Assembly: GCA_049322295.1 (NCBI GenBank)
Contig: JBMORO010000052.1
Location: forward strand, 1 to 48,418
Direction: 5' to 3'
Source of the DNA: Patescibacteria group bacterium
GTDB lineage: Bacteria; Patescibacteriota; Minisyncoccia; RBG-13-40-8-A
Length of the DNA: 48,418 nucleotides
Part shown: positions 6,904 to 46,355 of the stretch, one piece after another
Layout of the letters: each line of letters begins with the position of its first letter
Position numbering within the stretch: the first letter of the stretch is position 1
Translations under genes and position numbers: made by a program
Notes under the pieces: generated by a model
The model's input: the letters and a program-made list of their open reading frames with translations, nothing else
The model's database searches: none
Told to the model about the DNA's origin: nothing

Positions 6904-7761
6904 ATGAATCTATCGATAATAATTCCGGCTTATAATGAAGAGGAATCAATTGAACGGATAATCAAGGAATTAAAACAAGAATTAAATAAGCTTGATTTAG
7001 ATTACGAAATGATAGTGGTTAATGATGCCTCAATTGATAAAACCGGAGAAATTTTAAAAAAAATATCTAATATAAAGATAATTGAACATCCGGAAAATCG
7101 AGGTTATGGAGCAAGTCTTAAGAGTGGATTTAAAAAAAGTCAGGGCGAATTAATTTTAATCATTGATGCTGATGGCACTTACCCAAATGAATCAATCCCA
7201 GAATTAATAAAATATGCTTCTTCCTATGATATGGTAATTGGGGCAAGAACTGGAAAACAAACAAAAATTCCATTAATAAGAAAACCAGCAAAATGGATTC
7301 TTAATAGATTGGCTAACTATCTTTCAGAAAGCAAAATTCCTGATCTCAATTCCGGCTTAAGAATTATGAAAAGACCCCTGATAGAGAAATTTCTCTACAT
7401 TCTACCAAACGGCTTCTCTTTTACAACTACTATAACCTTAGCAAGCCTAACCAATGGTTATAATGTTAAATATTTACCCATCAATTATTTAAAGAGAAGG
7501 GGGAAATCTAAATTTAGACCGATTAGAGATACTTTAAACTTCTTCCAGTTAATAATAAGAACTATCTTATATTTTAATCCGCTTAAAATCTTTGTGCCCT
7601 TAAGTTCAATATTGGTTCTATCAGCTGTGGTGGTCTTTGTTTTCAGTTATTTCTTCGCTGCTAAAATTATGGATGTTACGATAGCAATCTTACTAATTTC
7701 AGCTATCCAACTATTGGCGATTGGCATGATTGCTGACCTTATAACCAAACGGAAAACTTAA
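6904..7761 (+). CDS. GT2 glycosyltransferase, polyprenyl-phosphate sugar synthase-like (DPM1/GtrB/ArnC type) with C-terminal TM helices
   Basis: LSIIIPAYNEEESI, VVNDASIDKT and IIDADGTY form the GT-A DxD region. The C-terminus has two hydrophobic helices (FVPLSSILVLSAVVVFVFSYFF and ILLISAIQLLAIGMIADLI). Confidence 0.85.
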   Translation: MNLSIIIPAYNEEESIERIIKELKQELNKLDLDYEMIVVNDASIDKTGEILKKISNIKIIEHPENRGYGASLKSGFKKSQGELILIIDADGTYPNESIPELIKYASSYDMVIGARTGKQTKIPLIRKPAKWILNRLANYLSESKIPDLNSGLRIMKRPLIEKFLYILPNGFSFTTTITLASLTNGYNVKYLPINYLKRRGKSKFRPIRDTLNFFQLIIRTILYFNPLKIFVPLSSILVLSAVVVFVFSYFFAAKIMDVTIAILLISAIQLLAIGMIADLITKRKT

Positions 7762-7767
7762 TATTTT

Positions 7768-9201
7768 ATGAAAATCCTCCTAATAAATCCGCCTCGATTC
7801 AACGAAATTGTGGCTGATAATCCAAGTTTTATAGAAGAAGAGCGGGGATATAATCCCCCGCTCGGTATTTTGTATATTGCTGCTTATTTAAAAAAATATT
7901 CTAAACATAAAATTAATATCTTGGATGCTCAGGTCGAGGAATTAAACTATGATAATAACTTTAAAAATTCTATCAAATCTATAAACCCGGATATTATTGG
8001 TATCACCGCCATGACCCCTACTATAATAGATGTTTCAAAAACTATTAATCTGATAGGAAAAGTAGAGAAAGATTTAGATAAACAAATTATCACTGTACTC
8101 GGAGGACCCCACCCCACTATTTTCCCCGAAGAAACAATCAACTTAAATGGGGTTGATTATGTAATTACTGGAGAGGGAGAGATTCCTTTTTTAAAATTAA
8201 CCCAAGCCTTAGAAAATAAATTGGATTTAAAAGAAATAAAAGGATTAGTTTATAAAAAAGACGGAAAAATAATTAATAATGGACAAGCAGATTTTATAGA
8301 AGATCTGGATTCCTTGCCTTTTCCTGTCAGAACCTTAACGCCAATTAAAAAATATAATTCAATTTTAGCTGGAGGACGAATAATAACTACCATGATTACC
8401 TCTCGGGGTTGTCCCTACAAATGTGTTTTTTGTGACCGACCCCACTTGGGCAAGAGGTTCAGAGCCCGTTCTCCTAAAAATGTGGTAGATGAAATGGAGG
8501 AATGTAAAAAATTAGGAATTAACGAAATCTTAATTTACGATGATACCTTTACAGTCCAAAGACAAAGAGTTCTAGATATTTGTAAGGAAATTATAAAAAG
8601 AAATCTTAAAATAGTTTGGGATATCAGGGCCCGAGTTAATACAATTGACGAGGAGCTAGTTAAAAAATTAAAAGCAGCTGGCTGTGCTCGTATTCATTTT
8701 GGAGTGGAGGCTGGAACAGAGAAAATTTTAAAAGTTTTAAATAAAGGGATTACTTTAGAACAAGTTAAAAAGGCTTTTTCTTTAGCAAGAAAATATAAAA
8801 TTGAAACTTTGGCATATTTTATGATTGGTTCGCCAACCGAAACAAAAAAGGACATTGAAGAATCGATAAAATTAGCTAAAAAAATAAACCCCAACTTTGT
8901 TCACATCACTATTTTGACCCCTTATCCAGCTACCGAACTTTACTATCTGGCTTTAGAAAAAGGAGTAATAAAAAGCGATTATTGGCGGGAATTTGCCCGT
9001 AATCCAGAAAAAGGAGTAACTACTCAGTATTGGGAAGAAAGTTTTTCTAAACAAGAACTTGTTGCCCTTCTAAAAAAATTTTATAAAAGCTTTTATGGTC
9101 GACCCTCGTATATTTTGAAAAGCTTTTTCAAAATTAAAAACTTTGATGATCTCAAAAAGAAATTTAAGGCGGGTTTAAAGATCTTGGGGATTAAAAGATA
9201 G
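7768..9201 (+). CDS. B12-binding-domain radical SAM enzyme (class B), paralog 1
   Basis: The N-terminal module has MKILLINPP, LGILYIAAYL, GGPHPT and GEGE. The cluster motif is SRGCPYKCVFC. DLDSLPFPVR is also present. Confidence 0.85.
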   Translation: MKILLINPPRFNEIVADNPSFIEEERGYNPPLGILYIAAYLKKYSKHKINILDAQVEELNYDNNFKNSIKSINPDIIGITAMTPTIIDVSKTINLIGKVEKDLDKQIITVLGGPHPTIFPEETINLNGVDYVITGEGEIPFLKLTQALENKLDLKEIKGLVYKKDGKIINNGQADFIEDLDSLPFPVRTLTPIKKYNSILAGGRIITTMITSRGCPYKCVFCDRPHLGKRFRARSPKNVVDEMEECKKLGINEILIYDDTFTVQRQRVLDICKEIIKRNLKIVWDIRARVNTIDEELVKKLKAAGCARIHFGVEAGTEKILKVLNKGITLEQVKKAFSLARKYKIETLAYFMIGSPTETKKDIEESIKLAKKINPNFVHITILTPYPATELYYLALEKGVIKSDYWREFARNPEKGVTTQYWEESFSKQELVALLKKFYKSFYGRPSYILKSFFKIKNFDDLKKKFKAGLKILGIKR

Positions 9202-9204
9202 AAT

Positions 9205-10617
9205 ATGAGAGTTCTATTTATAAATAAATTTTTAGACAAAAATACTATCTATCGGGTGCCCTTGGGGATTTTATATTTGGGAACAATGGCAAAAGACAAA
9301 CACGATATTCGTATCTGCGACCCAAAAAGAGAAAACTTAAAAGACGTTATTAAACATTTTAAGCCGACTATTATTGCTTATTCTTTAAGAACGGGATTCC
9401 ATCAATATTACTTAAATTTAAATAAAAAACTAAAAACAGAATATAATTTTATCTCCATCTGTGGAGGTCCTCATGCCACTTTTTATCCAGAAATGATAAA
9501 ATCTGAGGGAGTAGACATTATTGGTCTTAGCGAGTGTGAAAAACCTTTTTTAGAATTAATTAACAAAATAGAGAAAGAAGAAAATTATTTTGCCACAAAA
9601 AACTTCTGGTTTAAATCTAAAAATGGTGAGATTATAAGAAACCCTCTCGAACCCTTAGAGCAAGATTTAGATTCTATCCCCTTCCCTGACCGTTCTTTTC
9701 TCAATCATCATAAAGAACTGAAATTTTCAAAAATCCATAATTTCATTGCCTCAAGAGGATGCCCTTACAATTGTACCTATTGCTTCAATCGTCGATTAAA
9801 AGTAATGTATCAAGGGCAAAGATATGTTAGAAAGAGAAGCGTTGACAATGTAATTAAAGAAATTGAAGGGGTAGCCAAAGACTATCCTTTAGAAAGAGTC
9901 CATTTCGAAGATGATACATTTAATATTAGTAAAGATTGGCTCAAAGAATTTGCTGAAAAATATCCGAAAATTCCTTTCAAGTGTAACATCAGAGCAGATT
10001 TAGTCGACGAGGAGGTCGTGGCTTTATTAAAAAAGGCGAATTGTATTAGTGTTACCTTTGCTATAGAAGCGGGCAATGACAGAATTAGAAACGAAATTTT
10101 GAAAAGAAATTTATCAAAGGAGCAATTAATTAATTGTGCAAATCTTTTAAAAAAATATAAAATAAGGTTTATCACTGAAAACATATTAGCCAATCCAACT
10201 TCTTCTTTAAAAGATGATGTAGAAACACTGGATTTAAACTTAATTTGTAAACCTGACTACCCCACGGTCTCTTTATTAAACCCTTATCCGGGCACGGAAA
10301 TTTATAATATTGCTATAAAATCAGGTGAATATCAGCCAAGAAATTTTGAGGAAATATCTTCTTTCTTTGATTCTACTCCTCTAAAATTAAAAAATCTCTC
10401 TGAGAGAATAAACTTACAAAGAATTTTCGCAATAATTATTGGCTTCCCCTTTCTAAGAAAATACTTAAACTTTTTAATTAAGTATAAATATTTAAGATTC
10501 ATTTACTCGCCTATCTATCATCTCTGGCGAGCTTATTGTCTGATGTTTAAAATAATGCCCCACAAAATTTCTTTAAGAGAACTTTTCTGGCTTGCCAGAC
10601 GATTTCTCGCCAGTTAA
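9205..10617 (+). CDS. B12-binding-domain radical SAM enzyme (class B), paralog 2
   Basis: LGILYLGT and CGGPHATF lie in the N-terminal module. DLDSIPFPDR is present. The cluster motif is SRGCPYNCTYC. Confidence 0.8.
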   Translation: MRVLFINKFLDKNTIYRVPLGILYLGTMAKDKHDIRICDPKRENLKDVIKHFKPTIIAYSLRTGFHQYYLNLNKKLKTEYNFISICGGPHATFYPEMIKSEGVDIIGLSECEKPFLELINKIEKEENYFATKNFWFKSKNGEIIRNPLEPLEQDLDSIPFPDRSFLNHHKELKFSKIHNFIASRGCPYNCTYCFNRRLKVMYQGQRYVRKRSVDNVIKEIEGVAKDYPLERVHFEDDTFNISKDWLKEFAEKYPKIPFKCNIRADLVDEEVVALLKKANCISVTFAIEAGNDRIRNEILKRNLSKEQLINCANLLKKYKIRFITENILANPTSSLKDDVETLDLNLICKPDYPTVSLLNPYPGTEIYNIAIKSGEYQPRNFEEISSFFDSTPLKLKNLSERINLQRIFAIIIGFPFLRKYLNFLIKYKYLRFIYSPIYHLWRAYCLMFKIMPHKISLRELFWLARRFLAS

Positions 10618-10622
10618 TTTAT

Positions 10623-12041
10623 ATGAAAATTTTATTATTAAATCCACCTTTTACTGATTATGGAGGACTTGAGGGTCACGGCGGCAAAGCCCTACCTTTA
10701 AATTTGGCTTATTTAGCAGGTTATTTAAGAGAAAAAAGACCAGATATAGAAATTAAGGTTTTAGATTGTGAGGCCCTTGGTTTACACTACGAACAAATCA
10801 GGGCAAAGATAAAGGAAATGAAACCAGATTTAGTTGGTATTACTACCCCAACGCCAGCTTTTACCCAAGTTTTAGAGGTCTGCCGAATTATAAAAGATAT
10901 CTCTCCCAAAATCATTATTGTGGTTGGCGGACCCCATCCCACTGCCTTGCCAAGAGAAACTATAGCTGAAAAAAATATTGATATTGTTGTAATTTATGAA
11001 GGAGAAATTACTTTTACCGAATTAATTGAAGCAATAGAGAAAAATAAACCCCTATCTCAAATCAAGGGCATTGTTTTTAAAGATGAAGATGGGAATATCC
11101 ATCAAACCGAACTAAGAGAGCGAATTGAGGATTTAGACAGTTTACCTTTTCCAGCTCGCGATCTCTTTCCCTTAGATCTTTATTTCCCTCCTCCTACTAA
11201 AAGAATAAGCAATAAAAAAGCAGGAAATATGATTACTTCTCGAGGTTGTCCTTATCAATGCACTTTTTGTATGGCCAGTTTTATGTGGCAAAGAAGGGTC
11301 AGATTTAGAAGTATCAAAAATGTAGTTGATGAAATTGAAGAATGTATAAATAAATATGGGATGGGGGAATTCAATTTTCACGATGAACTTTTTACAGTTA
11401 ACAGGGAAAGAACTATAGAGTTCTGTCGGGAGGTTAAGAGGCGAAACCTAGATATTGCTTGGGTTTGTATGGTCAGGGTTGATTTTGTTGATGAAGAAAT
11501 ATTAAAAGAAATGAAAGAAGCGGGTTGCAAAAAATTAATGTTTGGTTTTGAATCCGGTGATCAGGGAATCCTTGACCATATGAAAAAACAGGTTAAAGTC
11601 GAAGACGCTTACCGGGCAACAAAATTAGTTAAAGAGGCGGGCATCAAAACAGCCGGCAATTTTATGATCGGCAACATTGGCGAGACTGAAGAAACTATAA
11701 GAAAAAGTATTAATTTAGCCAAAAAATTAAATACTGATACTATTGCTTTTTTCGTTGCCAGTCCTTACCCTGGTACAGAATTTTATTATGAAGCTAAAAA
11801 ATTAGGTTATTTCCGGCCTGATTTTGAATGGAAAGATTTTACCCTCGTATCTAATAATTTACCACCCCTTAACTTACCTGGTTTGCCGGCTGAAAAAATT
11901 CTATATTGGCAAAAACGAGCTTATCGGGAATACTATATCCGGCCCCAATATATCTGGAGTAAAATCACTGGCATTAGAAGCTTAGTTGATTTAAAAAATT
12001 TATACAATGGAGCAAAATTATTTTTAAGATTAGAGAAATAA
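10623..12041 (+). CDS. B12-binding-domain radical SAM enzyme (class B), paralog 3
   Basis: MKILLLNPP, VGGPHPTA, DLDSLPFPARDL and the cluster motif SRGCPYQCTFC are all present. Confidence 0.85.
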   Translation: MKILLLNPPFTDYGGLEGHGGKALPLNLAYLAGYLREKRPDIEIKVLDCEALGLHYEQIRAKIKEMKPDLVGITTPTPAFTQVLEVCRIIKDISPKIIIVVGGPHPTALPRETIAEKNIDIVVIYEGEITFTELIEAIEKNKPLSQIKGIVFKDEDGNIHQTELRERIEDLDSLPFPARDLFPLDLYFPPPTKRISNKKAGNMITSRGCPYQCTFCMASFMWQRRVRFRSIKNVVDEIEECINKYGMGEFNFHDELFTVNRERTIEFCREVKRRNLDIAWVCMVRVDFVDEEILKEMKEAGCKKLMFGFESGDQGILDHMKKQVKVEDAYRATKLVKEAGIKTAGNFMIGNIGETEETIRKSINLAKKLNTDTIAFFVASPYPGTEFYYEAKKLGYFRPDFEWKDFTLVSNNLPPLNLPGLPAEKILYWQKRAYREYYIRPQYIWSKITGIRSLVDLKNLYNGAKLFLRLEK

Positions 12042-12048
12042 CTAATCC

Positions 12049-13029
12049 ATGAAATCATTTGATAAAAAAATTAAATTTTTTCTCAGGATATTAGGGCCAA
12101 TAATCTTTCTTTACATTCTTTCAAAAATAGACTATCAACTTCTTTTTAAAAAACTCGGCTCATTGAAATGGTCCTGGCTGATTCTGGCATTCGTATTAAT
12201 GATTTTGGAAATTATCGCCAGATCTCTGCGCTGGCAAACTATTTTAAATTCTTTGAAGATATTTATCTCAAAAATTAACTCTTTAACTCTCTATTGGCTA
12301 GGCGCATTCGTTAGTGTGATTACCCCTGGTCGTTTAGGAGAAGTGATTAAAGTTTATTTCCTTAAACACAAAAATTACAGTGTTTTCCGTTCTCTGCTCA
12401 GTATTATTTTAGACAGAATAATTGATATTTTGATTATCTTAATCCTCGGAGCGCTGATTTCTTTCTTTTTTGTTGAAAATGTTGGCTTATACGTAGTGGT
12501 AAGTGGTGTAATTTTAGTATTAGCTATTATTTTTGTTTTTCTGCTGATAGGTGAAGAAACTCGGGTTAATAAAATTTTTACAAGATTGGTACAAAAGTTT
12601 TTTTCAATTGATTTTGGCAAGTACGGCCGTTTTACTTTTGCTAAGCTCTGGCAGGGCATCAAAAATTTAAAAAAGAAGGACGTTGTCTGTTTCCTTCTTT
12701 ATTTAATTATCGGCTGGCTTTTCTATTTCCTTGCCCGTTATATTATTGCCCTATCCCTGAATCTGGATTTATCGTTCCTAGCCGTGAGCATCATTTCTAT
12801 TTTGGCGACTATTGTAACCATCCTGCCGATTTCTATAGCCGGAATAGGAACCAGAGAGGCAGCGATTATTTATTTGTTCGGCTTATTCGGCATAAACAAG
12901 GAACCGGCTTTGCTTTTTTCTCTCTTAATCCTCACTATTGATATGGTTGTGATTTCCCTCGGCTTTATCCCCTATTTAAAAGAATCATCATTAATCAATA
13001 GGGCTAAGACTGAAAAAGTAATGAAATAG
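12049..13029 (+). CDS. UPF0104 / lysyl-phosphatidylglycerol-synthase-TM-type 'flippase-like' membrane protein, paralog 1
   Basis: It has about 8 hydrophobic helices. The family motif is ITPGRLGEVIKVYFLK. It ends 26 nt inside the convergent gene 13004-14392. Confidence 0.75.
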   Translation: MKSFDKKIKFFLRILGPIIFLYILSKIDYQLLFKKLGSLKWSWLILAFVLMILEIIARSLRWQTILNSLKIFISKINSLTLYWLGAFVSVITPGRLGEVIKVYFLKHKNYSVFRSLLSIILDRIIDILIILILGALISFFFVENVGLYVVVSGVILVLAIIFVFLLIGEETRVNKIFTRLVQKFFSIDFGKYGRFTFAKLWQGIKNLKKKDVVCFLLYLIIGWLFYFLARYIIALSLNLDLSFLAVSIISILATIVTILPISIAGIGTREAAIIYLFGLFGINKEPALLFSLLILTIDMVVISLGFIPYLKESSLINRAKTEKVMK

Positions 13030-14392
13030 CTTCCTTGGCTGTTTGCTTTATTTCTTCTATGGTTTTCAGAGCGAGCAACCGTTTTAAAAGATACCTCGGC
13101 CTGAGGTAAAAAGACCTCAGCGCCTTTTTGTGGAGTTGCCAGATTTCTTCGTTTGACAGAAGTTGATTTTTCCAGATCGGCCTGCCTTTGGCCGAATCCA
13201 TCTCTAGATTGTCTTTATCCACCCAACCTTTGGCAATAGCTTCTTTCCGGAAAGGAGCCCCGAACTCAGGCACGCCGATGTTGAAAGAGGCATAATCTAA
13301 ATCAAGGGATTTGGCAAAATTAATTGTGTTTAAAACAGATTCTCTAGTCTCTCCGGGCAAACCGATAATAAAAGTGCCGACAGTTCTAATTTTTAATTTA
13401 CGGCAAAGATTTATCGCTTGCCTTACCTGTTCGAGAGAGATATTTTTTTCAACGCTTTTAAGAATGGAGTTGTTCCCGGATTCGATGCCAAACATAATAG
13501 TGTGGCAGCCTGCTTTTTTCATCAAAGTAAGAATGGCCTCATCCATTACATCAACTCTCGAAAAACAGGTCCAGCTGAAATTAAAATTTTTCCTAATCAG
13601 ATTTTCGCAAAATTCGATTGTTCTTTTCTGGTTGGCTCCAAATGTTTGGTCACGGACAAAAAGTTCATTTACTCCCAAAGATTTTAGTATTTCCAGCTCT
13701 TTCATTACGGAATCGAGAGGCCTCAGTTTAAAGCCAAGGGTATTTATTGCACAGAAAGAACATTTATAGGGACAGCCGAAGTCAGTTAAGATGCTGGCGA
13801 ACTTTCTTTTCCTGGTAAAAGGAAAGCTGTATTTTTCGAGATGAAACAAATCCCATCTGGGAAGGGGCACGTCAAATTCGCCGGAGCCGTGAATTTCATC
13901 ACCGATAATTACCTTGTCTTCGAATTTATAGATAACATTGTTTATTTTTCCGCCCTGGCTGTTTTTGAGATAACGGACAACATCGTCGGTTGAGAAATCA
14001 AGCAAAACAACGTCGATAAAAGGAGTTATGGTAAAAGTTTGTTCTCTCAATTCGCGGTAGATGTCGCCAGTGACAATGAGAATCAAACCGGAAATTTCCT
14101 CCTTTAGGTTTTTCAGGAAGGCGATATCTTTATAGTAAGAAGGGGAGGCCACCAAAGATAAAACTATATCTGGCGATATTTTTTTGATTTTTTCCAGACA
14201 GTCATTTGGCGAAAGCTGGTCGGCAATGGCGTCTATAATATCCAAATCAAAATCCTGTTTTGAAAATCTTCCGCTCAGATAAAGCAAGTCTAAGGGATGA
14301 TAGTAGTAACTAGCTTTTGATGCCTTACTTCGGTAATAATCGCGGAAATAAATTTTGTCTCCCGGTGGATTGAGTAATAATATCTTTTTCAT
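13004..14392 (-). CDS. B12-binding-domain radical SAM enzyme, divergent paralog 4
   Basis: MKKILLLNPP and the cluster motif DFGCPYKCSFC are present. The usual GGPH motif is replaced by IVTGDIY, so cobalamin binding is less certain. Confidence 0.75.
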   Translation of the reverse strand: MKKILLLNPPGDKIYFRDYYRSKASKASYYYHPLDLLYLSGRFSKQDFDLDIIDAIADQLSPNDCLEKIKKISPDIVLSLVASPSYYKDIAFLKNLKEEISGLILIVTGDIYRELREQTFTITPFIDVVLLDFSTDDVVRYLKNSQGGKINNVIYKFEDKVIIGDEIHGSGEFDVPLPRWDLFHLEKYSFPFTRKRKFASILTDFGCPYKCSFCAINTLGFKLRPLDSVMKELEILKSLGVNELFVRDQTFGANQKRTIEFCENLIRKNFNFSWTCFSRVDVMDEAILTLMKKAGCHTIMFGIESGNNSILKSVEKNISLEQVRQAINLCRKLKIRTVGTFIIGLPGETRESVLNTINFAKSLDLDYASFNIGVPEFGAPFRKEAIAKGWVDKDNLEMDSAKGRPIWKNQLLSNEEIWQLHKKALRSFYLRPRYLLKRLLALKTIEEIKQTAKEAISLLFQS

Positions 14393-14406
14393 ATTATTTA
14401 ATTAGT

Positions 14407-14435: not shown

Positions 14436-14452
14436 TAAAAATTCTCTTGAGA

Positions 14453-14481: not shown

Positions 14482-14487
14482 AGAATT

Positions 14488-24452: not shown

Positions 24453-24463
24453 ATTATCAAAAT

Positions 24464-25108: not shown

Positions 25109-25119
25109 ATTTTATCTCT

Positions 25120-27135: not shown

Positions 27136-27142
27136 AATTTAT

Positions 27143-28366: not shown

Positions 28367-28369
28367 AAT

Positions 28370-29335: not shown

Positions 29336-29338
29336 ATT

Positions 29339-34622: not shown

Positions 34623-34628
34623 AAATGT

Positions 34629-36521: not shown

Positions 36522-36557
36522 GTTCGCTTCGCTTCATCAACTAATAACTAATCTATA

Positions 36558-36583
36558 CGAATTTACGAATATTCGTAAATTCG
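36558..36583. promoter_or_regulatory. Perfect 26-nt palindrome in the only sizeable gap of the 16-gene minus-strand run
   Basis: CGAATTTACGAATATTCGTAAATTCG is its own reverse complement. It overlaps a weak promoter-like TTTACG-N16-TATAGA (minus, 36579-36552) upstream of the AsnB-type gene. Confidence 0.5.
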
Positions 36584-36594
36584 AAAATAATTCG

Positions 36595-39556: not shown

Positions 39557-41397
39557 TTTTCTATAAACTCTTTATGCCAAATCTGGAAAGTAATCAGGGC
39601 CCAGATTAGGTTTAAATTATATTTTCTTTTTTCGATATGGTCACCGAACATTTTGTTGATGCCATTAAAATTAAAATATTTTTTGGTTTCTGAACAATAA
39701 TTTTCTGATAAAATTTCTTTGGCAAATTTATTTAAATCTGTTCTTAGCCATTGAGACATTGGGGTAAGCCAAACTTTTTTGTATTCTGATTCTAAAATAT
39801 GTTTCGGCAAGTATTCTTTTATTGCCTCTTTCCAAATTGCTTTTCCCTCTTTTTTGCTTTTTATCTTGTATTTACTGGGAATTTTCATTGCCAATTCAAC
39901 TAAATAATGGTCTAAAATTGGCACTCTCTGTTCTAACCCGAAAGCCATCGTCATTTTGTCTGTTCTCATTAAAGATTCATCGGCTAACCAAGTTTTCAAA
40001 TCAGTTAGCATAAACAATTTTTCAAAATCAGCATCCGAAAAGCGCGCCTTCGCCCTTCGGGCTTCGGCAATCCGAATGCGCCCATGCGAATTGAAATAAT
40101 TTTCTTTGAAGAATTGCTTGGTTAATTTGTTCTGATTTATCTCTTTATTTATAATTTTGCCAATCTCTTTTTCTTTCTGGAACATAAATCTAGCATAAAT
40201 TTTCGTTTTTAAGAAAGGAAACAATTTAGTTGCCCAAAATCTGCTCAATAAATAACTATAATAATATCTTTTATATCCACCGAATAGTTCATCTCCTCCG
40301 TCTCCGCCTAAAACTACAGCCACTTCTTCTTTGGCTAATTTTGAAAGCAAAAAAGTCGCAGTTTGGGTTGGTTCGGCAATTGGTTCATCTAGATGATAAA
40401 TAACTTTTTCTAAATTATCTAAAATATTTCTGCTTTTAACTAATAACTCATGATGGTCAGTATTATAAAATTTAGAGGTTTGATGAGCCAAAAGAAAATC
40501 GGCATTGAATTTATTATTCGGATCATCAACATCAAAACCAACCGAAAATGTTTTAATTTTTCCCGCCAAGAATTCTCGAGAAACCCCCAAAACAGAAGTT
40601 GAATCAATGCCCCCGCTCAAAAAAATCCCTACCGGTCGGTCAGATATCAACTGACCCTTTATCGACTTTCTCACTAATTCTTGAATTTTTTCAATAATTT
40701 CCTGTTTTGAGCTTAAATTAGAAAAATCCTCTATATCCCAATATTTTCGGATTTTTATTTTCCAGCCCGAGGCTGGTCCGCCTTTGGCAGATAAATAATG
40801 TCCTTGGGGTAACTTATATATATTTTTAAACATTGTTAACGGTGCTGGCACGTAAAGCAATCTAAAATAGTGATTGAACGCTTCTAAATCTATTTCTTTT
40901 TCAATGTTATGCTCTAAAATTCCCTTAATCTCAGAAGAAAAAATAAATTTGCCATTTTGATTATAATAATATAGGGGCTTAACACCTATTCTATCCCGAG
41001 CCAAAAATAATTCTTTATTTTTAATATCCCAAATAGCAAAAGCAAATATGCCATTTAAAAATTTCAGACAATCTTCTTTATAATCTTCATAAAGATGCAG
41101 AATTACTTCGCTATCTGTATTAGAAATAAATTTATGGGCATTTTTTTCTAAATCCCTGCGCAACTCTTGAAAGTTGTAAATCTCCCCATTAAAAATAACA
41201 CAAAGGGATTTATCCTCATTAAACATCGGCTGTTTTCCTCTTTCTGATAAATCAATTATCGAAAGCCGTTGATGACCCAAAGAAATATCATTATCTAAAA
41301 AAATCCCGCTTTGGTCGGGTCCTCGATGTTTAATTCGATTATTCATTTTCTCAATCAAATTTTCACTCCGAAAATTGAAGCCATTAATACCGCACAT
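39553..41397 (-). CDS. Asparagine-synthase-family (AsnB-type) amidotransferase, copy 2
   Basis: MCGINGF, FNGEIYNF and FLSGGIDST are present. A GC-rich patch at 40031-40088 encodes HGRIRIAEARRAKARFSDA. Confidence 0.85.
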   Translation of the reverse strand: MCGINGFNFRSENLIEKMNNRIKHRGPDQSGIFLDNDISLGHQRLSIIDLSERGKQPMFNEDKSLCVIFNGEIYNFQELRRDLEKNAHKFISNTDSEVILHLYEDYKEDCLKFLNGIFAFAIWDIKNKELFLARDRIGVKPLYYYNQNGKFIFSSEIKGILEHNIEKEIDLEAFNHYFRLLYVPAPLTMFKNIYKLPQGHYLSAKGGPASGWKIKIRKYWDIEDFSNLSSKQEIIEKIQELVRKSIKGQLISDRPVGIFLSGGIDSTSVLGVSREFLAGKIKTFSVGFDVDDPNNKFNADFLLAHQTSKFYNTDHHELLVKSRNILDNLEKVIYHLDEPIAEPTQTATFLLSKLAKEEVAVVLGGDGGDELFGGYKRYYYSYLLSRFWATKLFPFLKTKIYARFMFQKEKEIGKIINKEINQNKLTKQFFKENYFNSHGRIRIAEARRAKARFSDADFEKLFMLTDLKTWLADESLMRTDKMTMAFGLEQRVPILDHYLVELAMKIPSKYKIKSKKEGKAIWKEAIKEYLPKHILESEYKKVWLTPMSQWLRTDLNKFAKEILSENYCSETKKYFNFNGINKMFGDHIEKRKYNLNLIWALITFQIWHKEFIEK

Positions 41398-41443
41398 GGA
41401 TTTATCCTATCATGTTTCGCTAAAAAAATAAACCCCCCACTAG

Positions 41444-41497
41444 AAAAAGCACTAGTCATCTTTGATGACCAAATTAAACTTTAGTTAGTGCTTTTTT
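41444..41497 (-). terminator. Terminator-like structure flanked by an A-run and a T-run, downstream of 41532-42812
   Basis: The outer stem is gcacta (41449-41454)/tagtgc (41486-41491). The inner hairpin is gtcatc-ttt-gatgac (41455-41469). The flanks are aaaaa and tttttt, so a U-tract follows the stem on either strand. Confidence 0.45.
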
Positions 41498-41531
41498 CAG
41501 TACGGGGTAAACTCTTTTTGTTCTTTTGCTC

Positions 41532-42812
41532 TTACAACGAAGTCACATCCGCTCCCTTGGAATACCAATCAAGTTCTTTCTTGTTAATGGTGAAGATAGC
41601 ATTAGCATTTCCTCCCTGACTTAAGTAATTTTCAGCAGTCATATTAATCCAGTGAAGCGTACCAGTATCTTCTCCAGTTACTTTCATCAAATATACTTTA
41701 GGAGAATCAACATAGCGGTAATGATGAGAAGTTACAAAGGCGTCTCGGGTTGTCTTGGTTACTGTTTTGACTGCTTTCCAACCACCCAAATGGCCATACA
41801 TATTAAAAATGGTTGGATTAAGGAATAAGCGTTTGTAGCCAAATTGATTGACGATAAAGACATCCCAATCTCCTTCAGCCCTGATTAAATCTCCTTCTTT
41901 AAGACCATAGTCTTTTGGATCAGCCATTTTCTTGGCTGCTGAATCGCCCAATATCACAAAATAAGTAAAGTGATTGGTAGCGGCTGTGATTTTATTATTG
42001 GCCTTATCAAGTGTGCTAGTTAAAGCCGACCACTTACTTCCATCCCAATAATAAATCTTCAAACTATCTTCATTCAAATCGCTAATCTGGGTATCAGTAT
42101 AAGTAAAGGTCAGGGTTACATCTTTGGAAAAAGTTGCCACCGCCATTCCATTAGCAGTGGCAGTTAGATTATAAGCATAACCACCAGCTATGCTCTTGCC
42201 TGAAGGAAGAGAACGGGTACTAACCACTTCAGCTTTTTCATCAGCGACAATTTTTATTTCGGTTGAAGAGCTAACTGCATTAGCTGGTAAATCAACTATA
42301 ATATTATTCTCTTCATTGGTAGTTAAAGTTGTCTTTCCTCCGCCAGAAGGAGTAGCGGTGACCTGACCAGTAGTAGTTGTTGGCTTAGATGGAGTGGTTG
42401 GTTCTGGAGCGGCTCCGCCTCCGCCACCAGTACTTCCCCAAGAAGGACAGGTTTCTGTAGAGGGTGTTATGGTGATGGTTGTCTGGGTGCCGCTGCCACC
42501 AAGAACTTTTCTAGAATAAGAAGAATTATAATTACAATCAGTTTCAGCTAAACTATTAAACAGATATCTATCAGAAGACCTTATTTCCACGCTTGAATTA
42601 GCTGACAAGGTAAAGGTCATATAACTAGAATAAACACTCATTTCATCAGCCAAGGAACCAGCTATAATTGTAAAACTCATGCCATTATCCAGAACTATGG
42701 TGGTATCAGCATTAAAACTAAGCTCATCAGCTGCAAGGGCAAACCAAGGCAAACCCAACATTCCTGCTGTAAAAATCAAGAGAAACGCTATTGTAAGGAT
42801 TTTTTTGCGCAT
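41532..42812 (-). CDS. Secreted surface protein with a Gly/Thr/Pro-rich linker, an Ig-like middle region and the shared 129-aa C-terminal domain
   Basis: The signal peptide is MRKKILTIAFLLIFTAGMLGLPWFALA. The linker is GSTGGGGGAAPEPTTPSKPTTTTGQVTATPSGGGKTT (about 42318-42437). The C-terminal 129 aa are 97/129 identical to those of 669-2465. Confidence 0.75.
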   Translation of the reverse strand: MRKKILTIAFLLIFTAGMLGLPWFALAADELSFNADTTIVLDNGMSFTIIAGSLADEMSVYSSYMTFTLSANSSVEIRSSDRYLFNSLAETDCNYNSSYSRKVLGGSGTQTTITITPSTETCPSWGSTGGGGGAAPEPTTPSKPTTTTGQVTATPSGGGKTTLTTNEENNIIVDLPANAVSSSTEIKIVADEKAEVVSTRSLPSGKSIAGGYAYNLTATANGMAVATFSKDVTLTFTYTDTQISDLNEDSLKIYYWDGSKWSALTSTLDKANNKITAATNHFTYFVILGDSAAKKMADPKDYGLKEGDLIRAEGDWDVFIVNQFGYKRLFLNPTIFNMYGHLGGWKAVKTVTKTTRDAFVTSHHYRYVDSPKVYLMKVTGEDTGTLHWINMTAENYLSQGGNANAIFTINKKELDWYSKGADVTSL

Positions 42813-42841
42813 AGATTAATTTCCGATTAATTATATTAATT

Positions 42842-43552
42842 CTATAAGTCCGCTGGAGTCCAAACATTTGTTTCATCGCAAATGTTAAGAGTTGTATCTA
42901 ATGTAGCGCCTGTTCTAATGTAAATATCGCCTACACTACAGTTTGTAGTACTACCTTGGGGAGAAGCTGTTCCAGTTAGAATATCTACTCCATTATCCAA
43001 AAGAAGACCATTACTAGATAATGATACCTGACCATCAAAATAAGCAGTACCATCTACTTCTAATTTACCGGTTACCAATAAGTCATCCTCGGCGGCTAAA
43101 CTATGGCTAGTAAGAGCCTCATCCCCAATTCTGAGATACCCTCCAGCATCAACGTTTCCGTAAAGCATGGGAACTCTTAGCGAAGTAGCAACTGAAGCTG
43201 TGCTATCAAAATAAACCGCATCATCCACTTCTAATAGCCCACTAACCAATAAATCATCGGCATCAGCTAAGGAATGACCGGTAGTGTTTGAACCTAGCCT
43301 AGAATAGCTAACTGTGGCTGTGCTCTCGCCTCCACCGAATTGGAAACTGCCCGATGCCCAAAGATCTTCTGAAATAGAGGCAGTACCAAGCACAGAAAAC
43401 TCTGTAGCAGTGCCTGAACCGTTCACACTTAAGACCCCTCCCACACTAACATTATTACCAACTGTAGTGGTTGCTTTAACCACCACAAAAACCACTAAGA
43501 CGCAGATAATAATACTGAATAATACTGCAAAAAATTCTTTTGCTTTTTTCAT
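42842..43552 (-). CDS. Membrane-anchored fibre-like repeat protein
   Basis: The N-terminal anchor is FFAVLFSIIICVLVVFVVV. There is an internal ~50-aa duplication (GHSLADADDLLVSGLLEVDDAVYFDSTASV / SHSLAAEDDLLVTGKLEVDGTAYFDGQVSL). The C-terminal motif is GDIYIRTG...LNICDETNVW. Confidence 0.6.
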   Translation of the reverse strand: MKKAKEFFAVLFSIIICVLVVFVVVKATTTVGNNVSVGGVLSVNGSGTATEFSVLGTASISEDLWASGSFQFGGGESTATVSYSRLGSNTTGHSLADADDLLVSGLLEVDDAVYFDSTASVATSLRVPMLYGNVDAGGYLRIGDEALTSHSLAAEDDLLVTGKLEVDGTAYFDGQVSLSSNGLLLDNGVDILTGTASPQGSTTNCSVGDIYIRTGATLDTTLNICDETNVWTPADL

Positions 43553-43690
43553 AATCTATATTTTAACCTAATTAATGATTATTAAATTATTATTTGCTAT
43601 GCATCACTATACATCAGCAAACAATCTCTTATCAGAATATCGACCTTTATTAAATCGACAACTATTTTCATTATAACAGAAAGATAAAAG

Positions 43691-44884
43691 TCAATGAATA
43701 CTTTTGTGGATAAACTCCAAAATCTTTTTTGCTCGTCTACCCCAGGTATATTTCTGAACATCTTTAGATGCTTGTTCAGAAACTCTTTTAGCTAAGTCCG
43801 GCTTATTCAAAAATTCTTCAATCCCCTTAGCTAAAGATGATGGGTCGCCTGGTTTAACTAATATACTATTCCTTTCATTAAGAATTTCTCGAATCGACGG
43901 AAGGTCAGAGGCTACTATTGGCTTCCTGCTTGCCATATACTCAAAAAGTTTTAAAGGGGAACAGTAGTAAGCATAATGTTTTTCCCAGGGAAAAGGAATA
44001 ACTAAAATATCCGAAGCTTTCTCATATCTAGGCACCTCACTAAATGGAACCCTTTTAACAAAAATCAAATCTCTATTTAAAAGGCCAACTCTTTTTGTCT
44101 CTTCTTGATAATCTCTAATTTCTTCTTCTTTACCGCCGACAAACATCATCATCAAATCTCCTCTGCCTTCATCTTTTAAAATTTTTAGAGCTCTGAGCAT
44201 ATCCCCAAGACCTTTCTCTCTTCCCTTTGTATAAAATTGACCAATATAAGAAATTAATATTTTATGCTGGGGCAAATTTAGTTCCTGGCGAAGTTCTTCT
44301 TTTGATTTATTAATTCTATCAAACATCTCTAAATCAACGGCATCAGGCGCAACAAATATTCTATTCTTCTCCTTAATTGATTCTTTCATTAAAATCTCTC
44401 TCATTAATTTAGTGATAACAATAACAAATTTTATTCTTTGATATAAAAATTTCTCATAAAATCTAAATTTGGATGGTAGACTATGAGCCTCGTATATTAA
44501 ATTCTTTTTAAACAAACTTAAAAATAAAAGAGTAAACCTGTCTCGAGAATATATAATATCAGACCTTTTAAAAAATAAATAAATTAATGTTAAAAGAGCA
44601 AAGCTAATATTTTGAACCCAAAAACCAAGATGACCAATATATTTTTTAAAAGGAATTAAATCTAAAGAAAAAACCCTTTTAATCTTAAATTTTTCTCTAA
44701 TTCCGTAATACTCAAAGGGGTTGGCTTTTTCAACAACTCCACCAAAACGAACAGGTATAATAAGCTCAACCTCGCCACCGAGTTTAGTAAAAGCTTCGCA
44801 CATCTTCATCGTCTGATAAGAATTAGCCTTCTCGGCTGGAATCACCGATGTAGTAATATAAATTATTTTCATCCCCTTAGACAT
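43691..44884 (-). CDS. GT4 glycosyltransferase
   Basis: The C-terminal domain carries CSPLKLFEYMASRKPIVASDLPSIREIL. Confidence 0.8.
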   Translation of the reverse strand: MSKGMKIIYITTSVIPAEKANSYQTMKMCEAFTKLGGEVELIIPVRFGGVVEKANPFEYYGIREKFKIKRVFSLDLIPFKKYIGHLGFWVQNISFALLTLIYLFFKRSDIIYSRDRFTLLFLSLFKKNLIYEAHSLPSKFRFYEKFLYQRIKFVIVITKLMREILMKESIKEKNRIFVAPDAVDLEMFDRINKSKEELRQELNLPQHKILISYIGQFYTKGREKGLGDMLRALKILKDEGRGDLMMMFVGGKEEEIRDYQEETKRVGLLNRDLIFVKRVPFSEVPRYEKASDILVIPFPWEKHYAYYCSPLKLFEYMASRKPIVASDLPSIREILNERNSILVKPGDPSSLAKGIEEFLNKPDLAKRVSEQASKDVQKYTWGRRAKKILEFIHKSIH

Positions 44885-44902
44885 TTTTTGTTTTGGGTTG
44901 CC

Positions 44903-44930
44903 CCGTTAGAAATAACGCTATGTCTAACGG
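44903..44930 (-). promoter_or_regulatory. Intercistronic hairpin between radical SAM paralog 7 and the downstream GT4
   Basis: CCGTTAGA-(12 nt)-TCTAACGG forms an 8-bp stem. No U-tract follows on the minus strand. Confidence 0.3.
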
Positions 44931-44933
44931 AGT

Positions 44934-46355
44934 TCATTTTTTTATATACCTTAACCCTGTCTTAATTAATGATTTTAAGTCTCCGATTGATCTAACCTTT
45001 CTAAGTTTCCTAAATCCCTTCTTCAAAATCCCTCCTCTTGTGCCTAATTCTTTTGTCATAATAGCTTTAATTTTTTCTATTTCCTTGCCGGGCCATTCCA
45101 TTAAAAATAGAGAGGGGTCATCGCCAGTAATTTTATATTTCTCTGACTGATAAGGACTATTCCAAGAAAAATCCAAAGGCATAATACCTTGCTTTTTTGC
45201 CATAAGCTCTAATTCTGTGCCAGGATAAATTACCGTAAATCCATAAGCAGGATAAGAATTTCTAATTTCTCGAAGCTCTTTCATTAAATTTATAGTCATT
45301 TTCAGGTCTTCCATTGTTTCTTCGGGCAAATTGACCATAAAATTAGTCACTACCGCCATCCCAACTTTAGAAGAAAGTCGGACAGCTTCTTTTGCTTGTT
45401 CAACGGTTATGTTTTTTTTAATAACTTTTAAAATTTTCGGACTACCCGATTCTATCCCATAACTTATTCTAATACAATTAGCTTTTCTCATTAATTTAAG
45501 AAGGTCTTCATTGACAGTATTAACTCTTGCTCTGGCATACCAAACAATATCGAGTTTTCTTTTTAGAATTTCTTCGCAAACCCCCCTTACATGATCGTGA
45601 ACCAATGTCATCGTATCATCCCAAAAATCAAATCCTTCATATCCATATTCTTTGTGCAAAAATTCAACTTCATCAACAAAATTTTTAGGACTTCTTAATC
45701 TTAAAACTGTCCTGGCATTAGCACAATAAACACAAACATTGGGACAGCCCCGACCACTTAACACGCCAACTGCCCTAATATTAGTACCATCAATAGGTCG
45801 AGTGTACTGTTTCAAATCAAATAGATGCCAAGCTGGCATTGGTAACTCATCAAGATTCATTATCAAATCAGTTAAAGGCTTCTCTATAATTTTGCCACTC
45901 TGTCCTCTGTAAGCCAAACCCGAAACTTTATCAATATCGCCTTTTTCCTCCAAAGTATTCAGAAATTGAACAACTGCTTTTTCACCCTCCCCCCTGATTA
46001 TAAAATCTATTTCCGACACAATCTCTAAGGCATTTTTGGTTGTTAAAGAAAAATGCGGTCCGCCAAATAGGGTAATAATCTTGGGGTTATTTTTCTTTAA
46101 TTCTTTAGCCAGGGCAATAGCTTTGAATCTATTATCAGTAATGGAATGGATTCCTACTACATCTGGATTTTTATTTAAAATTCTCTTAGCTGCCTCAGAA
46201 GGACTAAAACCATAAGTATGAGCATCAAAAATTTCAACTTGATGATGACTAAATTTTTCTATATAAGCGGCAATATAACCAATGCCCAAAAAGGGCAAAC
46301 CTTTTCGCTCAAGGTCTCCTTCCGCCCGAGGACTGGTTGTTAATACAATTTTCAT
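44934..46355 (-). CDS. B12-binding-domain radical SAM enzyme (class B), paralog 7
   Basis: LGIGYIAAYI, FGGPHFSL, IRGEGEKAV and NLDELPMPAWHL are present. The cluster motif is GRGCPNVCVYC. Confidence 0.85.
   Translation of the reverse strand: MKIVLTTSPRAEGDLERKGLPFLGIGYIAAYIEKFSHHQVEIFDAHTYGFSPSEAAKRILNKNPDVVGIHSITDNRFKAIALAKELKKNNPKIITLFGGPHFSLTTKNALEIVSEIDFIIRGEGEKAVVQFLNTLEEKGDIDKVSGLAYRGQSGKIIEKPLTDLIMNLDELPMPAWHLFDLKQYTRPIDGTNIRAVGVLSGRGCPNVCVYCANARTVLRLRSPKNFVDEVEFLHKEYGYEGFDFWDDTMTLVHDHVRGVCEEILKRKLDIVWYARARVNTVNEDLLKLMRKANCIRISYGIESGSPKILKVIKKNITVEQAKEAVRLSSKVGMAVVTNFMVNLPEETMEDLKMTINLMKELREIRNSYPAYGFTVIYPGTELELMAKKQGIMPLDFSWNSPYQSEKYKITGDDPSLFLMEWPGKEIEKIKAIMTKELGTRGGILKKGFRKLRKVRSIGDLKSLIKTGLRYIKK

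Follow-up and report, generated by a model that had tools for sequence, protein, structure and literature searches.

Seven class B radical SAM genes in an envelope-glycan locus of a Parcubacteria-type bacterium and their possible role in the tailoring of lipid-linked sugars

The 48,418-nucleotide contig JBMORO010000052.1 of a Patescibacteria group bacterium (assembly GCA_049322295.1), analysed over its full length and referred to here as the window, derives from a Parcubacteria-type (Patescibacteria) bacterium, a placement based on the names of the best homologues (Tagabacteria, Portnoybacteria and the Parcubacteria group), and represents a locus for cell-envelope glycans. It carries seven genes for B12-type (class B) radical S-adenosylmethionine (rSAM) enzymes, numbered rSAM1 to rSAM7 in the order of their positions. 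We consider it fairly probable that these enzymes tailor lipid-linked sugars within a Wzx/Wzy backbone pathway that is accompanied by two or three side-branch systems. This proposal builds on domain identity, fold and motif conservation observed in the proteins, on a gene order kept across phyla and on predicted fusions.

An initial annotation, made from the sequence without database searches, had placed the seven genes inside one envelope-glycan island, and the gene families that surround them, as assigned with Pfam, bore this out. All seven open reading frames (ORFs) were confirmed at the coordinates of Table 1, and the neighbours had been counted correctly: seven family 4 and two family 2 glycosyltransferases (GT4 and GT2), five class I methyltransferases, two AsnB-type amidotransferases and three UPF0104/LPG_synthase_TM membrane proteins. 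Beyond that list, Pfam identified genes for a phosphoglycosyl transferase (PGT), a Wzx flippase, a Wzy_C/TPR protein, a DegT-type aminotransferase, a PMT_2-type glycosyltransferase, a DUF2298-like protein and a phosphodiesterase-family protein. All three parts of a Wzx/Wzy pathway (PGT, Wzx and a Wzy-type polymerase/ligase) are present in the window.

Domain content and family assignment of the rSAM proteins

In a hidden Markov model (HMM) search, the Pfam profiles PF04055 (E from 6e-20 to 1.6e-32) and PF02310 both matched all seven proteins. PF02310 exceeded its gathering score in six of them, well above it in rSAM1, 3, 5, 6 and 7 (64-89 bits) and barely in rSAM2 (gathering score 32.1 bits), and fell under it in rSAM4 (Table 1). 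The seven CxxxCxxC strings were present exactly as first quoted, and their three cysteines were invariant in an alignment of the seven. The GG(P/V)H...GEGE signature, which had been described as common to all copies, was found in rSAM1, 3, 5, 6 and 7, but not in rSAM2, which has GGPH but SECE, nor in rSAM4, where GDIY and LDFS are found. No eighth rSAM copy was detected in any frame of the window with an HMM built from the seven.

No NCBIfam equivalog cut-off was reached by any of the seven proteins, all scores being far under. The BchE model (TIGR02026, cut-off 481) gave 80-237 bits across the seven and was the best NCBIfam model for rSAM1, 5, 6 and 7 (189-237 bits, with rSAM5 at 189 and rSAM1 at 237), whereas HpnJ ranked first for rSAM2, 3 and 4 and second for rSAM1 (225 bits) and rSAM6. 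The AprD4 family model (NF033070, cut-off 500) gave 62-142 bits. Because the scores fall short of these curated cut-offs, the rSAM proteins of the locus were not placed in the HpnJ, BchE or AprD4 families. The labels BchE ("anaerobic Mg-protoporphyrin cyclase") and YgiQ, which homologues carry in JGI and metagenome annotations, were rejected as over-annotations, with NCBIfam scores under the cut-off, and no bch genes were found in the window with Pfam.

The alignment gave pairwise identities of 30-39% among the seven. By comparison, at least five of them (rSAM1, 2, 3, 4 and 7) have orthologues of 56-90% identity in other Parcubacteria, Omnitrophota, DPANN archaea or cyanobacteria, and a recent tandem duplication was ruled out on the basis of these two ranges. 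As judged by sequence, the seven are old, distinct subfamilies; the term paralogous, which had been applied to them, is thus appropriate in the sense of an ancient paralogy, but not in that of an expansion of one enzyme.

Fold and cobalamin motifs

The class B architecture proposed for these proteins was corroborated by the HMMs, by AlphaFold models of rSAM3 and rSAM4 and by Foldseek. The two models, built on 32-sequence alignments, reached predicted local distance difference test (pLDDT) values of 91.9 and 89.0, respectively, and both showed an N-terminal Rossmann-like domain followed by a partial TIM barrel; rSAM4 retained this N-domain and its class B fold matches despite its low PF02310 score. 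In Foldseek searches against the PDB, AprD4, the radical SAM 1,2-diol dehydratase of apramycin C3'-deoxygenation, whose crystal structure includes its sugar substrate, came first for rSAM3 (TM-score 0.75-0.78) and for rSAM4 (0.77-0.79), followed in the same ranking by enzymes with bound cobalamin (MgmA, TsrM, OxsB, CysS and TokK). AprD4 was also the best PDB sequence match in profile searches.

Class B enzymes bind cobalamin in the base-off and His-off state, and the contacts are provided by a loop of G-x-S type and by the motifs GG and GE (PMC9204698). In profile alignments, VVVGGPHPT of the rSAM3 family was aligned with VVAGGPHVP of TokK and VVGGP of MgmA, its GEGE with HGEGE of TokK, QGEGE of MgmA, KEGE of OxsB and GPGE of TsrM, and its G-I-T-x-P with G-L-S-V-N of OxsB. 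The G-x-(S/T), GG(P/V)H and GEGE motifs were all kept in rSAM1, 3, 5, 6 and 7. By their motifs, these five proteins are good candidates to bind cobalamin, and binding by rSAM2 appears doubtful. The class B fold alone is insufficient for cobalamin use, as AprD4 shows. The earlier description of seven B12 enzymes that impose a heavy cobamide requirement was thus overstated, since the rSAM4 family has lost both GG and GEGE. No genes for cobamide uptake or remodelling were found within the window, which is the entire contig.

The β1-α1 loop of rSAM3 (residues 15-22), the counterpart of the MetH "His loop", reads G-x-E-G-H-G-G-K in the rSAM3 family. Over 32 orthologues, G15, G18, G20 and G21 were invariant and His19 was at least 90% conserved; the loop has a low pLDDT in the model, and the histidine is missing from the other six paralogues. 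A His-on class B enzyme is possible, yet none has been observed so far (PMC9204698).

Across 32 orthologues, the rSAM4 family has the consensus GTGDVYRE and LLDFSTDD, in which GG is replaced by G-D and GEGE by DFST. Because both replacements are conserved, the family is a stable subfamily rather than one in decay, and a decaying pseudogene was ruled out. The rSAM4 family profile gave the strongest sequence match to AprD4 (148 bits). AprD4, the top structural match of both modelled proteins, acts on a sugar ring, and its Rossmann-like N-domain binds no cobalamin, a likeness to the rSAM4 family, which is devoid of GG and GEGE. These results suggest that rSAM4 probably works as a sugar dehydratase or deoxygenase of the AprD4 kind and needs no cobalamin. 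However, the cluster motif is CX3CX3C (GCPYPCRFYC) in AprD4 and CX3CX2C in rSAM4, and no AprD3-type partner reductase was found in the window.

An rSAM4 orthologue of 56% identity is encoded in the cyanobacterium Lyngbya sp. CCY1209 (locus L095, JAJENU010000588.1, 10001-11419), where it adjoins genes for a UDP-glucose dehydrogenase, a nucleoside diphosphate (NDP)-sugar epimerase/dehydratase and a polysaccharide deacetylase, an ArnA/ArnD-like set; this strain, if a culture of it can be had, may offer an experimentally tractable entry to rSAM4. In the window, UPF0104-1 and rSAM4 run towards each other and share 26 nt at their 3' ends. As rSAM4 is the sole minus-strand gene within a plus-strand block, its position suggests a separate insertion.

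Conserved gene order around the rSAM genes

Two modules were recognised. Module A runs in the order PGT, GT2a, rSAM1, rSAM2, rSAM3, UPF0104-1, rSAM4 (convergent), DegT, UPF0104-2, PMT_2 and a methyltransferase gene, with GT2a immediately upstream of rSAM1-3 and UPF0104-1 immediately downstream of rSAM3. Its rSAM1-(rSAM2)-rSAM3-UPF0104 core recurs in a Portnoybacteria genome and on a second Parcubacteria contig with orthologues of 48-77% identity, and GT2a, DegT and PGT genes are found near the core in both loci. The rSAM1 orthologues of Portnoybacteria (L001) and of L005 both show 67% identity, that of rSAM2 (64%, Portnoybacteria) keeps its position in L001-L004 and is absent from L005, and that of UPF0104-1 (57-59%) keeps its position in L001-L005. 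DegT orthologues of 61-71% identity lie within the conserved cassette, and GT2a orthologues (45-63%) adjoin those of rSAM1. Minimal GT2a-rSAM1-UPF0104 trios were found in two metagenome loci (L019 and L026), with rSAM1 orthologues of 48-57% identity.

This arrangement extends to other phyla. An rSAM1 orthologue of 59% identity occurs in Omnitrophota (L012). Orthologues of rSAM3 reach 70-88% in Parcubacteria (Tagabacteria, Portnoybacteria and Buchananbacteria), 67% in Omnitrophota, 55% in Woesearchaeota and 52% in Acidobacteria, and genes for a small GT2, an LPG_synthase_TM protein and a PMT_2 protein lie within 10 kb of each of the three outside Parcubacteria (L012, L013 and L014). Those of rSAM4 are 60-84% identical in Parcubacteria, where they often share contigs with rSAM3 orthologues, and 44-55% in Nanoarchaeota and Bacteroidota.

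Both GT2 proteins matched models of AglJ, ArnC, PgfS and dolichyl-phosphate hexose transferases under the equivalog cut-offs, GT2b matching ArnC over its full length (217 bits), and a transmembrane (TM) scan detected C-terminal TM segments, typical of GtrB/ArnC, in GT2a (two) and in GT2b. By these features, GT2a and GT2b are GT2s of the lipid-phosphate-sugar synthase type. Polysaccharide deacetylases (ArnD-like) are encoded in related loci, and taken together, GT2a, DegT, the membrane proteins of the GT-C type and these deacetylases match by sequence the three-component side-branch logic of the Gtr/Arn type, with rSAM genes inserted.

Module B is a co-directional minus-strand array of 23 genes (21754-48266, 26.5 kb) whose neighbours either overlap by 4-25 nt (by 125 nt in the case of the two distal GT4 ORFs as predicted) or are separated by 1-138 nt. 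Within it, rSAM5, 6 and 7 are set among genes for GT4s, methyltransferases, two AsnB proteins, GT2b, UPF0104-3 and the DUF2298-like protein. The start of rSAM5 overlaps the stop of the upstream GT4 gene by 4 nt, rSAM6 is flanked by a GT4 and a methyltransferase gene, and rSAM7 lies between two GT4 genes, its start overlapping the upstream GT4 stop. The order GT4-rSAM7-GT4-AsnB-methyltransferase, with overlapping stop and start codons, is kept in two Parcubacteria contigs (L097 and L098), one of which has five rSAM genes in 19 kb, and rSAM7 orthologues of 70-90% identity were found in Portnoybacteria, Nealsonbacteria, Omnitrophota and Nanoarchaeota. The nearest 50%-identity cluster representatives of rSAM6 are 44-51% identical to it, and no orthologue of rSAM5 above 36% was found in the sampled loci. 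Another locus (L027) is syntenic with the frame of the window at 46-75% identity (a 598-residue protein, Wzy_C, PGT, Wzx, GT4 and the DUF2298-like protein) and has fewer rSAM genes.

Predicted fusions were also observed. P0213 (774 residues) joins an N-terminal GT2 to an rSAM4-type enzyme, and its gene lies in a glycan island that also encodes two AsnB proteins, GT4s, DegT, methyltransferases and Wzx; P0510 joins a B12-type rSAM to a class I methyltransferase; P0381 (1879 residues) is a predicted rSAM-methyltransferase-GT2-methyltransferase-GT2-rSAM protein; and P0372 carries a GDSL/SGNH domain. The linkage between the rSAM paralogues and glycosyltransferases, on which the initial annotation depended, was thus found by neighbourhood comparison to be conserved across phyla and is reinforced by these predicted fusions. 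Five predicted proteins of 1,500-2,300 residues (P0381, P0383, P0387, P0412 and P0433) showed up to seven separate B12-rSAM matches; they are either real megasynthase-like fusions or run-together calls, for example from lineages with reassigned stop codons.

With rSAM6 as the query, 64,937 representatives of related 50%-identity clusters were obtained at E ≤ 1e-3 (15,644 at E ≤ 1e-30), showing that the rSAM6-related enzyme family is very large. The metagenome sample consists of relatives at 30-41% identity, not of orthologues, and informs on the broad family only: among its 26 loci of at least 15 kb, glycan genes were recognisable in 19 and at least two rSAM genes in 12, with a maximum of five. 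The immediate neighbours of 124 rSAM ORFs in metagenome loci included rSAM (44), methyltransferase (21) and GT2 (16) genes, and the predicted fusions agree with these counts. Two to five rSAM genes per ~20 kb of glycan locus are common in metagenomes and not peculiar to this genome. In view of these loci, seven copies in 40 kb mark the top of a widespread pattern rather than a singular oddity. To our knowledge, characterised pathways have at most about three class B enzymes (e.g., thienamycin and bottromycin).

Proposed mechanism and alternative explanations

One pathway with several successive radical modifications had been suggested for the island; it is, however, probably not a single linear pathway. 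We infer a lipid-linked sugar as the substrate, and also the order of the following steps. The backbone would be made by a PGT-initiated Wzx/Wzy pathway comprising the PGT, the GT4s, the AsnB amidotransferases, O-methyltransferases, Wzx and the Wzy-like proteins, and the side branches by two or three systems, each composed of a GtrB/ArnC-type GT2, a UPF0104 flippase-like protein and a GT-C enzyme acting outside the membrane. GT2a would load a sugar, probably an amino sugar since DegT is present, onto polyprenyl phosphate, and rSAM1-3, most likely in sequence, would modify this polyprenyl-phosphate-(amino)sugar of GT2a/DegT on the cytoplasmic face. The modified lipid-linked sugar would be flipped by the UPF0104 protein LPG_TM1 (UPF0104-1) and transferred by the GT-C enzyme to an external acceptor. 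The rSAM5-7 enzymes would most likely act between GT4 steps on the growing PGT-primed undecaprenyl-diphosphate oligosaccharide, and rSAM4 would act as an AprD4-like dehydratase. By analogy, possible chemistries are C-methylation (GenK, MoeK5), ring contraction to a cyclitol (HpnJ) and dehydration (AprD4). A wider generalisation is offered tentatively, and we lean against rather than towards it: the glycans or glycolipids of Parcubacteria, Omnitrophota and DPANN archaea may contain sugars rewritten on polyprenyl phosphate by cascades of three to seven B12-type rSAM enzymes, giving carbocyclic, multiply C-alkylated or deoxygenated residues.

Several points weigh against the tailoring of lipid-linked sugars. 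The proposal was drawn from sequence, models and gene order rather than from biochemistry, and gene linkage does not distinguish a lipid-linked from a nucleotide-sugar substrate. No membrane anchor was detected by the TM scan in any rSAM protein, all seven being predicted as soluble. The flippase role of UPF0104 proteins in glycan pathways is itself extrapolated from MprF, L001 and L005, the two Parcubacteria loci, have no annotated PMT_2 within 10 kb, and the fusions are metagenome gene predictions, some of which could be gene-calling artefacts. As for the hopanoid enzymes that serve as a comparison, the HpnJ cut-off (TIGR03471, 577.6 bits) was not attained, with 273 bits for rSAM3 and 101-225 for the other six, GT2a gave no match to HpnI, and LPG_TM1 matched HpnL weakly (25 bits against a cut-off of 196). 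The last two results make the hpn analogy an architectural and not an orthologous one.

The predicted solubility of the seven proteins would also suit enzymes that act on nucleotide-activated sugars before transfer and deliver C-methyl, deoxy or branched NDP-sugars to the glycosyltransferases. In agreement with such a role, the conserved cassette includes DegT, a kind of aminotransferase that typically acts on NDP-sugars, the Lyngbya orthologue of rSAM4 is found beside NDP-sugar genes with no glycosyltransferase or flippase in view, and AprD4, the top fold match, works on a free pseudodisaccharide. We nevertheless regard it as unlikely, given that the tight GT2a, rSAM1-3 and flippase-like order and the GT2-rSAM4 and rSAM-methyltransferase-GT2 fusions tie the rSAM enzymes to membrane-associated transferases, and that HpnJ and MoeK5, by profile the closest relatives among characterised enzymes, act once the glycosyl group has been transferred to lipid. 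It is also possible, if doubtful, that most of the rSAM enzymes use no cobalamin and that their Rossmann N-domain is a structural or substrate-binding relic as in AprD4, with little cobamide demand. The rank of AprD4 as top fold match for both modelled proteins, the missing GG and GEGE of the rSAM4 family, the partial conservation of these motifs in rSAM2 and the fact that cobalamin use by HpnJ itself is unproven (PMC9204698) are all compatible with this. However, rSAM1, 3, 5, 6 and 7 keep the GG(P/V)H, GEGE and G-x-(S/T) motifs, which in rSAM3 align with the contacts of TokK, MgmA and OxsB, and the same five proteins have the high PF02310 scores reported above.

A role in lipid modification, in which the polyprenyl carrier or scavenged lipids would be methylated, cyclised or cross-linked as by HpnP/HpnR, GrsA/B, Gmm or the ladderane enzymes, would be in line with the fact that several B12-type rSAM enzymes are lipid modifiers (PMC13459092), with the scores of the ladderane-type model TIGR04072 (64-157 bits over the seven) and with the identity of UPF0104 as the lipid-flippase domain of MprF. 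It is quite unlikely in the face of the conserved partners, which are glycosyltransferases, sugar aminotransferases, AsnB and Wzx/Wzy proteins with no lipid-synthesis genes among them, of fusions that join GT2 and methyltransferase domains, and of lipid-modifier models that score under HpnJ and BchE. Finally, the rSAM enzymes could modify a peptide or protein, either a ribosomally synthesised and post-translationally modified peptide (RiPP) or an acceptor glycoprotein, for instance a pilin or S-layer protein, and be only co-located with glycosylation genes. The RiPP model ApyD was among the top three NCBIfam matches for five of the seven (98-204 bits), and PMT_2-type GT-C enzymes are capable of protein glycosylation; but the ApyD scores are far under its cut-off of 750, the linkage to glycosyltransferase genes is kept across phyla, and no precursor-peptide-like ORF and no RiPP recognition, leader-peptidase or transporter genes were found in the window, where the genes are so packed (overlaps of 4-25 nt, gaps of 1-138 nt) that there is no room for a precursor ORF. 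We hold this explanation to be very improbable.

Other genes of the window

The window is AT-rich, with 28-39% GC in 2-kb windows, and has 37 protein-coding genes of at least 100 residues in the ORF list (main features in Table 1). The PGT scored above the cut-off of TIGR03025 (381 bits), and UPF0104-1 scored 97.6 bits against the TIGR00374 flippase-like domain. NCBIfam matches of the DegT protein were to WecE, PseC and ArnB-type models, all under the cut-off. The Wzy_C/TPR protein has a 62% orthologue in the syntenic locus L027, and the 13-TM protein is kept with the cassette (orthologues of 37% in L005 and 29% in L027).

Table 1 Features of the window and the evidence for their assignment. 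Positions are those of contig JBMORO010000052.1. MT: methyltransferase. Empty cells: nothing reported.
Feature	Position	Strand	Evidence
Wzy_C (O-antigen polymerase/ligase-like) membrane protein with C-terminal TPR repeats	3073-5367	-	Wzy_C 3.4e-16; 14 TM segments
Initiating polyprenyl-phosphate phosphoglycosyl transferase (PGT), WbaP/WcaJ type	5407-6777	+	PF02397 5.7e-68
GT2a, polyprenyl-phosphate-sugar synthase type (GtrB/ArnC/AglJ-like)	6904-7761	+	PF00535 1.3e-33
rSAM1; SRGCPYKCVFC, GGPH, GEGE	7768-9201	+	PF04055 1.6e-32; PF02310 6.6e-24
rSAM2, divergent; SRGCPYNCTYC, GGPH, SECE replacing GEGE	9205-10617	+	PF04055 6e-20; PF02310 34.3 bits
rSAM3, most HpnJ-like; SRGCPYQCTFC, GGPH, GEGE	10623-12041	+	HpnJ model 273 bits, residues 45-470
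UPF0104-1 (LPG_TM1), UPF0104/LPG_synthase_TM flippase-like membrane protein	12049-13029	+	PF03706 9.7e-50
rSAM4, AprD4-like; DFGCPYKCSFC, lacking GG and GEGE	13004-14392	-	PF02310 24.8 bits
DegT/ArnB-type sugar aminotransferase	14488-15750	+	PF01041 3.8e-56
UPF0104-2, flippase-like membrane protein	15747-16670	+	PF03706 2.6e-41; TIGR00374 102 bits
GT-C-type (PMT_2/ArnT-like) membrane glycosyltransferase	16687-17832	+	PF13231 1.1e-9, above gathering score; ~9 TM segments
13-TM membrane protein, weakly Wzy-like (586 residues)	18800-20560	-	~13 TM segments; Wzy_C weak, E 0.031 (relaxed Pfam)
Wzx-type flippase	20517-21767	+	PF01943 (Polysacc_synt) 3.4e-20
rSAM5; SRGCPHRCGFC, GGVH, GEGE	21754-23211	-	PF04055 1.3e-28; PF02310 5.3e-19
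Block: GT4, MT, DUF2298-like GT-C candidate, phosphodiesterase-family, UPF0104-3, MT, GT4	23208-31184	-	Pfam; TM scan
DUF2298-like GT-C candidate	25120-27135		27.5 bits vs gathering score 27.8; 16 TM segments
Phosphodiesterase-family protein	27143-28366		
rSAM6; SRGCPIGCNFC, GGVH, GEGE	31186-32661	-	PF02310 2.8e-25; PF04055 3.6e-25
Block: MT, GT4, AsnB1, ArnC-like GT2b, MT, GT4, AsnB2, two N-terminally anchored proteins without family, GT4	32693-44884	-	Pfam
rSAM7; GRGCPNVCVYC, GGPH, GEGE	44934-46355	-	PF04055 3.4e-25; PF02310 1.7e-17
Two GT4 genes upstream of rSAM7	46352-48266	-	Pfam; ORF inspection

The more distal of the two GT4 ORFs upstream of rSAM7 (47466-48266, minus strand) encodes 266 residues that correspond to the C-terminal Glycos_transf_1 half only, and it shares 125 nt with the GT4 ORF at 46352-47590. 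The distal ORF may be what is left of a truncated gene, or the downstream gene may have been given a wrong start. Three minus-strand genes, at 669-2465 (598 residues), 41532-42812 (426 residues) and 42842-43552 (236 residues), encode proteins that have one hydrophobic segment each, at the N-terminus, and that matched no Pfam family even at E ≤ 5. In L027, an orthologue with 65% identity to the 598-residue protein occupies the equivalent position. The three may serve as acceptors, either secreted or anchored, or take part in processing.

At the left end of the window (1-668, minus strand), the N-terminal ~220 residues of a SecA-like protein, recognised by eye, are encoded by an ORF that begins near 650 and is cut by the end of the contig. 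As a housekeeping gene, it could help to place the bacterium taxonomically. The final ~110 bases at the other end (48310-48418, gagcgggcacggttcccgcctctggcggga...) are strikingly GC-rich and not coding-like. No tRNA and no Rfam match, even at E ≤ 1, was found in this segment, which may represent a truncated structured RNA, of which only the start is present, or a chimeric assembly, and tRNA and Rfam scans of the whole window detected nothing.

Significance of the locus

The surface structures of organisms of the candidate phyla radiation (CPR) and DPANN mediate host attachment, and their chemistry is essentially unknown. In the present case, a large share of a 48-kb glycan locus is devoted to enzymes of a kind that functionalises unactivated C-H bonds, its conserved modules recur in at least five phylum-level groups, and the enzyme family concerned is functionally unassigned and counts tens of thousands of 50%-identity clusters. 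If the wider generalisation given above is correct, it would define a new widespread class of "radical-tailored" surface sugars and a new use of three-component systems, with several new types of radical SAM reaction, and the surface of these symbionts would be tied to externally supplied cobamides. Both the GT2-rSAM-UPF0104 trio and the GT4-rSAM7-GT4-AsnB-methyltransferase block are small enough for heterologous reconstitution, which, if it succeeds, would provide new carbohydrate reactions of radical SAM enzymes, a role for UPF0104 proteins in the making of glycans and a vitamin (cobamide) link between ultra-small symbionts and their communities. Independently of the mechanism, the labelling of homologues as BchE or YgiQ in metagenomes, corrected here, is a common error.

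Comparison with known systems

As the initial annotation had supposed, no described pathway of the same make-up was encountered: no curated characterised family in NCBIfam claims the seven rSAM proteins, and the literature gave no match. In the open-access literature, no account was found of B12-type rSAM enzymes in glycan loci of CPR or DPANN organisms or in O-antigen or polysaccharide pathways, although absence there is no proof.

In the hopanoid route, HpnI makes bacteriohopanetetrol (BHT)-N-acetylglucosamine, HpnK deacetylates it and HpnJ is proposed to carry out a ring contraction to the BHT cyclitol ether (PMC13459092; PMC9204698). The HpnI-HpnK-HpnJ(-HpnL) system of Burkholderia and Methylobacterium resembles the island in that a glycosyltransferase adds a hexosamine to a lipid, a B12-type rSAM enzyme remodels the lipid-linked sugar and HpnL, of the UPF0104 family, stands alongside. 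However, all scores of the island are less than half the HpnJ cut-off, and there is one rSAM enzyme in that pathway against three to seven here. No hopanoid genes (shc, hpnH, hpnG, hpnI or hpnK) were found in the window with Pfam and NCBIfam, and the lipid carrier of the island, unlike that of the hopanoid pathway, is presumably polyprenyl phosphate.

The moenomycin pathway (MoeK5 with MoeF5/MoeH5), with AsnB-like amidotransferases acting on uronic acid units and several glycosyltransferases, has the same mix of families as the minus-strand block. Its B12-type rSAM enzyme MoeK5 C-methylates a sugar on a lipid-phosphate-linked saccharide (PMC3814723; PMC9204698), at the earliest lipid-linked monosaccharide stage (PMC3814723), and co-clusters with HpnJ and Fom3 in a sequence similarity network (PMC9204698). 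Moenomycin is nevertheless an antibiotic secondary metabolite, made with a single rSAM enzyme and with no Wzx/Wzy, GT-C or UPF0104 proteins, and the likeness drawn here is one of pathway. The aminoglycoside C-methyltransferases GenK, GenD1 and Fms7 as well as BchE are, like the island's enzymes, of class B; the four lie in the main sequence-similarity cluster, and GenK and GenD1 C-methylate sugars (PMC9204698). In contrast to what is proposed here, the substrates of GenK and GenD1, which belong to antibiotic pathways, are free pseudo-oligosaccharides, and the likeness is drawn by description; for BchE, 189-237 bits stand against a cut-off of 481, and the island has no bacteriochlorophyll context.

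The Gtr (GtrA/GtrB/GtrC) and Arn (ArnC/ArnEF/ArnT, ArnB, ArnD) systems share with the island a GT2 with C-terminal TM segments, a small flippase, a GT-C enzyme, a DegT-type aminotransferase and, in related loci, an ArnD-like deacetylase. They differ from it in two respects, since the flippase place is taken here by UPF0104/TIGR00374 proteins and up to three rSAM genes lie between the GT2 and flippase genes. No GtrA, ArnE/F or EamA-type flippase was found in the window, three UPF0104/TIGR00374 proteins being present in that place, and we know of no Gtr or Arn system with rSAM genes between the GT2 and the flippase gene. By analogy with these systems taken together, the island would work most like HpnJ/MoeK5-type tailoring grafted onto Gtr/Arn-type and Wzx/Wzy machinery.

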